Assembly: GCA_030265395.1 (NCBI GenBank)
Contig: JARFYF010000051.1
Coordinates: 13,813,816-13,877,815 of the forward strand
Reading direction: 5' to 3'
Source of the DNA: Rhina ancylostomus
Lineage: Eukaryota
Length of the DNA stretch: 64,000 nucleotides
Translations under genes and position numbers: made by a program
Notes under the pieces: generated by a model
Told to the model about the DNA's origin: nothing
Seen by the model: only the letters and a program-made list of their open reading frames with translations
Databases searched by the model: none
Shown: positions 3,611 to 6,370 of the stretch, in pieces
Layout of the letters: the number at the start of each line of letters is the position of its first letter
How positions within the stretch are numbered: the stretch's first letter is position 1

Positions 3611-5571
3611 TTTACTCTTAAATGTAAAATCAAAGATTAATATGTCCTAGAAATCCACCTTGCTTTGCATGACACACATGTGTGCATGTGTATATGTTCT
3701 GAGCTTGCTTATGCATGAAATACATGTGTCATTTTCTTCTGTTTTCCTATTAATACTGGTAACTTTAGATATAGAATACTGATGCAGGACTGTTTCTTTT
3801 TCTTTGGTGTTGAACCTCTTTAGCTGCAATTCAGTACAGAGTTTTGAGCAGCAAAACAAATCCCATTGCACTTATTCCATGGATCTTAGCAATTGTACAT
3901 CTTCTATTTAATAATTCCCGATTTGACACAGTATTGGACACATTTCACACAGGATTATACTGATGATTTTCAATTATGCTTCTGTTATTTAGACTAAGAC
4001 CATTGTCGTTTTGGTATGTGTTTTTTTTTTGCAGTTGTTGCATTTCCCTGTAGAGTAGAAGAGTAATCATAGATCCAATTTCAATTCCAGCACAGATTTT
4101 GTTGAAGCTCTGTCTAGCCTTTTTATTTGGAAGAATAGGTGAAGTGTTTGGGCGGTATTTTATGGTTCAATTGCACCCAGGCCAGAACTGGGGAAAAATT
4201 AATGTTAGATGCCATGTTTGTCACTGATAGAGATGTAAGCAAATACAGTGTGTTTGTGTCTCAGTGTTGGCATTGTCACTGGAAAGATTCAGATTAAGGT
4301 GTACAGTGCAGTACACTGTCCAAATGAAGAAGGATGGGAAAGATTGAGGTGAATGAAATAACCTGGCCACACCAAGTTTCAATTAAAATTCTGAACATTG
4401 AATGATGAAGAGAAGTATGAGCGAGGGACATGTGAACTGCACCTCTGTTGATAGGTTAAAAACATCAAAAATAGAAGAATCGGTCCATTCTATAACCCCT
4501 ATCTTTACAAGCTTTGCATAGAAAGCTCATGCTGACCTTAGCAGCTCCTGACAGCTTGCCTTGTTCTAAGTATCTCACGTGACCACATTAATCTGCAGCC
4601 TGTAATCACCAGCAGCAGAGCTGCAGAACAAATCACCCCTTTGTCCCACACTGTAGATATTCAGCTCAGGCCCCTAGTCTGGCCTTCTCCCTTATTTTTC
4701 CTGAGCTTGGTTGCAGTGGAATAAAACCATTTTCAGTTTTGAGTTTGCTTTTGTTATAAGCAGATTCCAAAAACCTTTCAAATGGTTGAGAGTTTATCCA
4801 ATACAGAGTTGATCAGGAAGATTTGGGGTTTGACTCCTAATTTTGTTGAATTACCTAGTGTCAGGCCAGTGTGATGATATCAGTGTTACCATAAGCCTGG
4901 TCTTCCTCATTTAAGAAGGGCATTTCACCAAGGCTTCCTGACCCTGATGGATTACTGAGAGTCCCACCTGTCAAATTCCCTGATAGAATGTATACTTGAC
5001 TTGACTTGCTTCTATCACTGAGTAAATCAGGTTGTATTCATTCTGTGGGCCACACATATCACATGGCCTTTTGGGTGGGATGCCTCCACAAAGAATTGCC
5101 CATTGTTTAAAAAGACAAGCTTGCCAAATAAAGTAAATCTGGTCATTGTGGCAAAGGATAAACTAGTGATTCCTGACCCATTGTAGAAAGTCATTTGAGG
5201 TGTCTGGAGTTTGTAAGGAAGACCTCTTGGAGAAAGCAATAATGGTGATATATCTGGAAGGCATCAACGACTTGCATTTATGTGGGCTCTTTAAATTAGT
5301 AAAACATTGCAAAGAATTTTACTGGAATGTTATCAAATAAAAGTTGAATCATAAGACATAATTAGGATAACTAACCAAAAGTGCACGATAAAGGGTAATA
5401 GTGGAGAGCAGAAAAGTTTTTAGGGAGGAAATCCCAGAGGTTAGGGCTTTGGCAGCTGAAGGCGCAGCAACTATTAAAATCAAGGGTGCTTGTGCTAGTG
5501 GTGCTGGTTTCATTTTGCGTGTGTCAGTACCATTTCCATCATATTCCCCTCTCATATTTTGCAATTCACAG

Positions 5572-5697
5572 TGGCCTTGTACGTTCCTGTAAAGGTTGCC
5601 GCTTCTTCCCAGTTGACCGCTGTCTGCCGCAGTTCCACGGGCAGCAAACAACAGAAAGCCCCTGAGTGCAACAAACCGGATCGAGAAATCAGTGTTG
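5572..5697 (+). CDS. Candidate alternative (cassette) exon of NRF1, 42 codons: VALYVPVKVAASSQLTAVCRSSTGSKQQKAPECNKPDREISV
   Basis: Pyrimidine tract plus CACAG acceptor (AG 5570-5571) and G|GTAAAG donor (GT 5698-5699). 126 nt, phase 1-1 matching the intron, no stop codon, 7 CpGs in CpG-poor surroundings. Prediction only. Confidence 0.4.
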
Positions 5698-5789
5698 GTA
5701 AAGATTCAAACCTGTGATATTTAGTTCATTTTGAAAATGCTGAATATAAGAGGGCCATGTTTGCATGGTATCACCAAAGTCAGAGGTGC

Positions 5790-6370
5790 ATGATCTAGTG
5801 AAGTGCCCACAGTAAGAAAGGAGAGGACTGAACATTAGTGTGATCTCCCAAAACAGATTGTGGCCTTTCCTGCAAAAGAAACATTTCTAAGATTAAAATA
5901 TTAATTAACCAGCACCTTACAAATGAATTAAATAAGAGCTTGACATAATGTTTGCACTCTGGCCTCCAAATCTTTAAACATGGTAGGACAAATTTAAAAA
6001 GCAACTAAAAGTGCATAGAAGGTACCTGTTTTCTGGAGGCATAAGAATACAAAAACAAGGAAATAGTGTTTAAAAAAATTTATAAATTGCTGGTTAGTTC
6101 AGGTGTTGGTTTTCAATTGTGGGCACTACACCACAGGAAGTTTGTCGAGAGGATGCAGGGGAAATTTAATAAGATGATGCCTTGTGAGGAGAGAATTGAG
6201 AGGCTAGGATTGTTTCTCTTAAAGCAGGAAAGGTTCAGAGGAGATTTAATGCAGGCAGATAAAATCATGAATTGTTTAATTAATGAGGGAAATTGGTTCC
6301 ACTCTTAGAAGACTAGGTAACCGGAAGATATAGATTTAAAGTGGTTGACAAAAGATCCAGAGATGAGGGG
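5790..6370 (+). mobile_element. Degenerate CR1 LINE fragment
   Basis: ORF 6066-6308 reads ERIERLGLFLLKQERFRGDLMQADKIM, the CR1 ORF2 C-terminal motif. Confidence 0.8.

Follow-up and report, generated by a model that had tools for sequence, protein, structure and literature searches.

An optional, frame-preserving NRF1 exon in the last intron of the gene is conserved among elasmobranchs

The window analysed here, a stretch of 64,000 nt of Rhina ancylostomus DNA, contains the last exon of NRF1, which starts in phase 1, together with intron sequence preceding it, and within this intron we identified a cassette exon of 126 nt (Table 1). The exon has canonical AG and GT boundaries, a length that is a multiple of three, an open frame free of stops and the same phase at both ends; the penultimate exon lies outside the window to the left, and its phase was taken from upstream-exon sequence forming a loose end at 5571 in assembled contigs and from RefSeq proteins. 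A sequence-only reading of this DNA had proposed the exon, and its acceptor, stop-free frame, phase, donor and seven CpG dinucleotides were all found where it had placed them. Every one of the CpGs falls within the exon (5582, 5600, 5618, 5628, 5638, 5677 and 5682), and at least six in 126 nt were reached by just 0.4% of windows across 1-13.7 kb. The island of unique sequence around the exon is larger than the ~300 bp initially described, since the single-copy stretch extends over ~570 bp (roughly 5475-6040) between a repeat that stops at 5462-5475 and a further remnant that starts at ~6045, both of which we take to be LINE-derived from a translated motif. Rfam gave 0 matches over 5300-6100. 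Elsewhere in the window a repeat of very high copy number occupies 6424-6619 (summed depth of ~5,500 in sequencing run X17), and a CpG-rich segment at 60642-63600 probably represents the promoter island of an adjacent gene.

Table 1 Features of the last NRF1 intron and exon in Rhina ancylostomus (positions in the window)
Feature	Position	Strand	Remarks
Upstream dispersed repeat, its end	5347..5475	.	Borders the island; many contigs with loose ends at 5419-5475; self-BLAST matches
Polypyrimidine tract with six YCAY, candidate NOVA silencer	5510..5569	+	YTNAY branch-point-like candidate at 5551; putative function
3' splice site AG	5570..5571	+	Upstream-exon loose end at 5571 in contigs of X1 and X8
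NRF1 cassette exon	5572..5697	+	126 nt, phase 1-1, +42 residues between ..VQDAN and GLVQIP..
Codons for residues 11-34, in register with C2H2 helix and linker	5604..5675	+	Both His and first Cys absent; origin uncertain
5' splice site GTAAAG	5698..5703	+	Donor G/GTAAAG; joint 5696>13843, GT..AG, cut +1
Read-through stop TGA	5715..5717	+	Reached only with donor ignored; use unsupported
TGCATG, candidate RBFOX enhancer	5762..5767	+	65 nt into intron; putative function
TGCATG, second candidate RBFOX enhancer	5787..5792	+	90 nt into intron; putative function
Downstream decayed retroelement-like remnant	6045..6400 (approximate limits)	+	ORF text; loose ends at 6217-6250
36 nt matching the second insert (12 residues) seen in four Pristis pectinata models	8250..8285	+	AT before instead of AG; GTCACT after
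NRF1 last exon, coding part	13844..14017	+	3' UTR after; AATAAA at 14450

Of 23 sequencing runs listed with words of the exon sequence, none of them recorded as RNA, four (X1, X8, X17 and X21) were compared with the window over 5000-14700. X1 and X8, which come from two organisms and two studies, each yielded a contig of 184 nt in which the whole exon is flanked by 29 nt encoding the end of its upstream neighbour, the penultimate exon, and by 29 nt of the last exon; the joint between exon and last exon is of the GT..AG type and skips 8146 nt. That these runs are RNA is a guess, one that the GT..AG joint supports. Splicing from the upstream exon into 5572-5697 and on to 13844 was observed in two of the three probable RNA runs compared, and the junctions to 5572 and from 5697 to 13844, which had been proposed for checking, fall at precisely the predicted sites. 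Contigs ending 29 nt into each neighbour are what is expected where paths branch on either side of the exon, which makes it probable that the X1 and X8 samples contain the skipped form as well. The depth of the X1 contig (16.2 over the exon and 34.4 over the last exon) is only a hint of mixed forms, as contigs give no level. X21 (0.00 share) lacks coverage of both the cassette and the last exon and is silent on skipping. In X17 the last exon was uncovered at the likeness used, which leaves this run incomplete as a DNA control for the joint. The exon words turned up in several samples: one organism had four samples with at least half of them, and another had five with 3 of the 7, a spread as compatible with broad inclusion as with tissue bias.

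The exon had been put forward as unannotated, but for 19 named species RefSeq already has predicted isoforms with its orthologue. Searched as 41 whole codons, the peptide matched 25 of 29 candidate proteins, all of them elasmobranch NRF1 isoforms, with 100% identity to Pristis pectinata RefSeq isoform X5 (XP_051889685.1, P0001) and 85-95% to 24 other proteins of sharks, rays and skates; the suggested search against chondrichthyan NRF1 isoforms was thereby answered positively. Models such as that of P. pectinata and isoform X1 of Hemiscyllium ocellatum (XP_060698700.1) have the identical exon and junctions, although RefSeq X isoforms are automatic predictions and carry no label of regulation or function. 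An inclusion model was found in 19 of 20 named elasmobranch species, and both inclusion and skipping models in 18, from isoform sets that are incomplete (up to 15 members per cluster, taken from the best 120 of 477 and 120 of 421 matches); among the isoforms compared, Rhincodon is without an inclusion model by name and Stegostoma without a skipping model by name. The insert was borne by 59 of the 213 NRF1 proteins compared, all 59 elasmobranch, and a HMMER scan of 1.84 billion representatives returned three matches, one shark NRF1 and two zinc-finger arrays, so that no homologue was found outside elasmobranchs in either set. Judged from these sequences, the exon appears to be annotated, alternative and restricted to elasmobranchs as far as the searches extend, in agreement with the lineage-specific, in-frame 42-residue insert before GLVQIP proposed earlier. 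The open-access literature yielded no paper on the exon or on any other insert at this NRF1 junction; splicing-atlas supplements may already list the elasmobranch exon or its amniote counterpart. PMC8017860 deals with NFE2L1, a different gene.

All 18 species compared have an insert of 42 or 41 residues, the sole indel being frame-preserving, and the expectation of a preserved frame across sharks and rays is therefore upheld. Mean pairwise identity among these species is 88% for the insert, compared with 100% for the 42 residues upstream and 98% downstream, and across 12 insert variants 25 of 42 columns are invariant, including the first nine residues. Over the intron, X17 and the window diverge by 4.5-5.9% (20/439, 45/1007 and 156/2663), and despite this X17 contains 7 of 7 sampled exon words (P 0.0005-0.06, depending on the bases covered), which is a hint of constraint at the nucleotide level. 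X8 shows 3 differences in 126 nt of exon against 2 in 29 nt of last exon, the lower rate not being significant (P=0.23). In mouse, tissue switching is enriched among conserved exons that preserve the frame and show low substitution (PMC1201369; PMC2784930), with only 237 of 2171 alternative exons (11%) tissue-switched (PMC1201369). The pattern of constraint on the NRF1 insert reads as the profile of old alternative exons.

The pyrimidine tract upstream of the exon contains six YCAY motifs in 60 nt. Five of these (5530, 5536, 5539, 5552 and 5566) had been reported from the sequence, as had both downstream TGCATG (5762 and 5787), and the positions proved exact, with a sixth YCAY added at 5510. 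The tests of rarity were all post hoc: six YCAY in 60 nt were reached by 0.12% of 123,246 windows, 0.5% of 13,602 pyrimidine-matched windows and 3 of 411 pyrimidine-rich windows with YAG after them, while two TGCATG in 100 nt have a Poisson P of 0.0012 and occur empirically in 0.3-0.6% of windows. The YCAY cluster was significant under mononucleotide shuffling (P=0.002) but not under dinucleotide shuffling (P=0.34), because it consists of an excess of CA in a pyrimidine tract which the latter shuffle keeps. Both the NOVA-type arrangement, at least three YCAY near an exon, and the RBFOX-type arrangement, UGCAUG in the proximal downstream intron, are thus present. YGCY sites, presumably MBNL-type motifs, also occur at 5487-5505 and 5597-5628, three of them upstream of the YCAY cluster and four within the exon.

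In mammals, NOVA acts mainly in neurons. RBFOX is high in muscle and neurons, likewise in mammals (PMC2018636). The two motif sets had been read as one signal, whereas RNA maps (PMC10987577) assign them opposite effects, upstream YCAY leading to NOVA-dependent skipping and downstream UGCAUG to RBFOX-dependent inclusion. Vertebrate RBFOX/NOVA cassette exons, as mapped in the same text, likewise have the UGCAUG pair just 3' and the YCAY cluster just 5'; the elasmobranch sets differ in predicting opposing effects, and are known here from the sequence of one intron. Coverage by X17 extends over the UGCAUG site. RBFOX bound to the two downstream UGCAUG would favour inclusion, which we hold at a little under an even chance, and NOVA bound to the YCAY cluster, overlapping the branch point and pyrimidine tract, would favour skipping, which we propose more tentatively. 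Combined with the tissue pattern of the two factors, these opposed effects predict inclusion that would peak in muscle and heart and fall in NOVA-rich neurons, rather than a neural exon. That inclusion differs by tissue at all would be somewhat more likely than not, and more probable than either regulator being correctly named.

Other inserts occupy the same NRF1 junction in other lineages. The sequence-only reading had mentioned a short, unrelated insert in mammals, and such an insert was found, amniote-wide and 19 residues long, conserved across turtles, birds and mammals (P0097, P0110, P0111, P0101, P0112 and others); we take it to be the one known from primates, and the open-access literature yielded no paper on its function. 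It lies in the same intron and phase as the elasmobranch exon, is likewise in-frame and optional and has a Cys in most species, but it is less than half as long and its hhalign probability with the elasmobranch exon is 0.2%. Further distinct inserts were found in cetartiodactyls, birds, lizards, snakes, salamanders, Xenopus, bowfin, gar and Callorhinchus, the last having its own 26-residue insert (C. milii X1, P0205). The 38 distinct inserts of at least 10 residues compared with the elasmobranch exon were enriched by the query and are partly single-species predictions, some maybe noise. HMM comparison with 33 other inserts gave E above 1 for all, and none of the 38, amniote and salamander inserts among them, showed significant homology, Callorhinchus offering the sole hint. 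Inserts that look unrelated at one junction in several lineages suggest that the last NRF1 intron gains exons repeatedly. By analogy only, post-transcriptional control is seen at the last intron of Drosophila ewg (erect wing), a homologue of NRF1 (PMC2643944), where ELAV suppresses poly(A) choice and allows splicing (PMC11551757), a choice of transcript end instead of the in-frame cassette of elasmobranchs.

Several origins for the exon were weighed. It may have been recruited from a fragment of a C2H2 zinc finger (helix, TGEKP-type linker and the start of the next finger) that lost its metal ligands and now forms a linker-like or disulphide- or metal-touching peptide, a derivation we regard as doubtful. 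C2H2 arrays make up two of the three library-wide HMMER matches and five of five PDB matches, but these whole-protein E-values sum tandem repeats, and the best single stretch reaches 11.8 bits, with an E of 3.9e4 library-wide and 3.7 in PDB; against the designed consensus finger 1mey the conditional E for a single stretch is 2.1e-5. Measured against a generic finger pattern of 13 family-defining positions, the peptide matches at 7 (5-7 in the 12 variants; shuffle P 5e-5), the only 7-match register among 127,858 in the six frames of the window (three others reach 6), and the other 38 junction inserts have at most 4. Set against this likeness, which was found post hoc, are the absence of any Pfam family at E up to 10, the lack of three of four ligands (the two His positions hold Val and Ser, the first Cys position Ala) and the codons themselves, 8 of 14 mismatched ones needing 2-3 base changes, a share resembling that of random pairs (67%) and not that of simulated neutral decay (~22%). 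The peptide would share with the C2H2 helix-linker (Pfam zf-H2C2_2, PF13465) its register and 7 of 13 defining positions and, without the His pair and with a single Cys in register, cannot be a finger. An exon older than the shark-chimaera split, with the 26-residue Callorhinchus insert as its diverged orthologue, is slightly less probable still. Junction and phase are identical, and the first nine residues share Tyr4, Pro6 and Val9 (ungapped anchored shuffle P=0.0016, the best of the 38 inserts), but this stretch was picked by eye and its P becomes ~0.06 when corrected for 38, the full anchored and local comparisons give P=0.046 and P=0.26, and the lengths differ. Tandem duplication of the last NRF1 exon was rejected, with shuffle P of 0.19-0.85 in all tests and scores as good in 100 of 1365 window segments.

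As to what the exon is at present, an artefact or a transposon fragment with chance splice sites has next to no probability. Repeats do stand on both flanks, but self-BLAST found no second copy of the exon within the 64-kb window, X17 depth over the exon is single-copy (13.6) and the frame is conserved in 19 species, and the elasmobranch protein matches together with the spliced contigs of X1 and X8 refute this reading. Use as an alternative terminal exon, with the donor ignored, the stop reached and cleavage close to the AATAAA/ATTAAA hexamers at 5892-5927, which would yield a weak and truncated activator, is very unlikely. The stop and hexamers exist, skates and Narcine have other annotated alternative ends and the poly(A) choice at the last ewg intron (PMC11551757) offers a parallel, but read-through occurs in 0 of the proteins compared and the X1 and X8 contigs exit at the donor, so the terminal form raised as an option in the sequence-only reading gained no support. 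A stronger competitor, though still less likely than not, is that the exon is real but under no regulation. Its inclusion would then be intermediate and much the same in all tissues, it would be tolerated because the site is a flexible linker, and selection would keep only its frame and splice signals, the motifs being incidental. This reading would fit an insert that drifts faster than its flanks (88% against 98-100%), a junction that may simply tolerate insertions, given 38 other distinct inserts there, exon words in several samples per organism, the X1 depths as a hint of mixed forms, the loss of the YCAY excess under dinucleotide shuffling and the small share of mouse alternative exons that is tissue-switched (11%; PMC1201369). 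It fits less well with the retention of the exon throughout sharks, rays and skates, its first nine residues being invariant, with two distinct motif sets at canonical positions, each at ~0.1-0.5% by chance, and with words intact in relatives whose introns diverge by ~5%. We consider it likely that the exon is a real, selected cassette that modulates the activation tail, its regulators being less certain.

The exon is best explained as a conserved, elasmobranch-wide, frame-preserving cassette in the last NRF1 intron, and the location of the insert suggests how it may act. The junction is at residue 446 of 503 of the skipped form, within the transactivation domain given as 305-503 for human NRF1 (PMC6113564) and far from the DNA-binding domain (139-312 of protein P0037). 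The insert is rich in Ser, Ala, Val and Lys and directly precedes a Gln-containing hydrophobic block, a type reportedly named for NRF1 activation in a title of Gugneja from 1996. With about even probability, the 42 residues would form a spacer in the C-terminal activation region that parts an Ala/Thr-rich segment from the Gln-hydrophobic LVQIPV..PVQVAM block, tuning coactivator recruitment and leaving DNA binding untouched; from the sequence this would be the simplest mechanism. An AlphaFold model from a 31-row alignment gave pLDDT <50 throughout, including the DNA-binding domain (mean 32.6), and the model consequently cannot show disorder of the insert. Searching the ESM Atlas with the peptide returned no usable match.

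We observed a number of other NRF1 variants alongside the exon. The segment matching the second insert of the P. pectinata models (Table 1) is outside the coverage of the probable RNA contigs compared, and was either lost or never usable in the R. ancylostomus genome or is a quirk of the models. Elasmobranch NRF1 also has a second optional insert of 29-30 residues between RLLR and KLRAT in the DNA-binding/dimerisation domain (P0001, P0013, P0022 and others), which is conserved across sharks, rays and skates and missing from the three Callorhinchus proteins compared, while echidna NRF1 (P0194) has a different insert of 20 residues at that site. This RLLR/KLRAT insert is likely to be more disruptive than the 42-residue exon and arguably of greater interest. 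Skate and Narcine models have alternative C-termini from the last intron that drop the last activation block (P0056, P0058, P0061, P0062, P0065, P0067, P0069, P0071, P0080 and P0081), and from their sequence it is possible that these are dominant-negative forms.

The exon described here is a real, old and lineage-restricted cassette exon, ordinary in kind and already present in automatic annotations, and its significance as it stands is modest. NRF1 is near-invariant at this point (100% over the 42 upstream residues in 18 species), whereas the junction itself has gained varied exons in many lineages, the human-type 19-residue insert occupying the same site, which offers a natural experiment on the tuning of an activation domain. 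In a broader and rather improbable view, the last NRF1 intron would be a convergent dial into which many lineages recruited in-frame activation-tail exons, the elasmobranch one being a ligand-stripped, domesticated C2H2 fragment that RBFOX would turn on in muscle and heart and that NOVA would turn off in neurons; cartilaginous fish would then have tissue-specific control of mitochondrial gene output. Should the RBFOX/NOVA opposition or the zinc-finger origin be true, the exon would provide a clean example of how an exon is born and captured by regulation, here in a master regulator of mitochondrial biogenesis.
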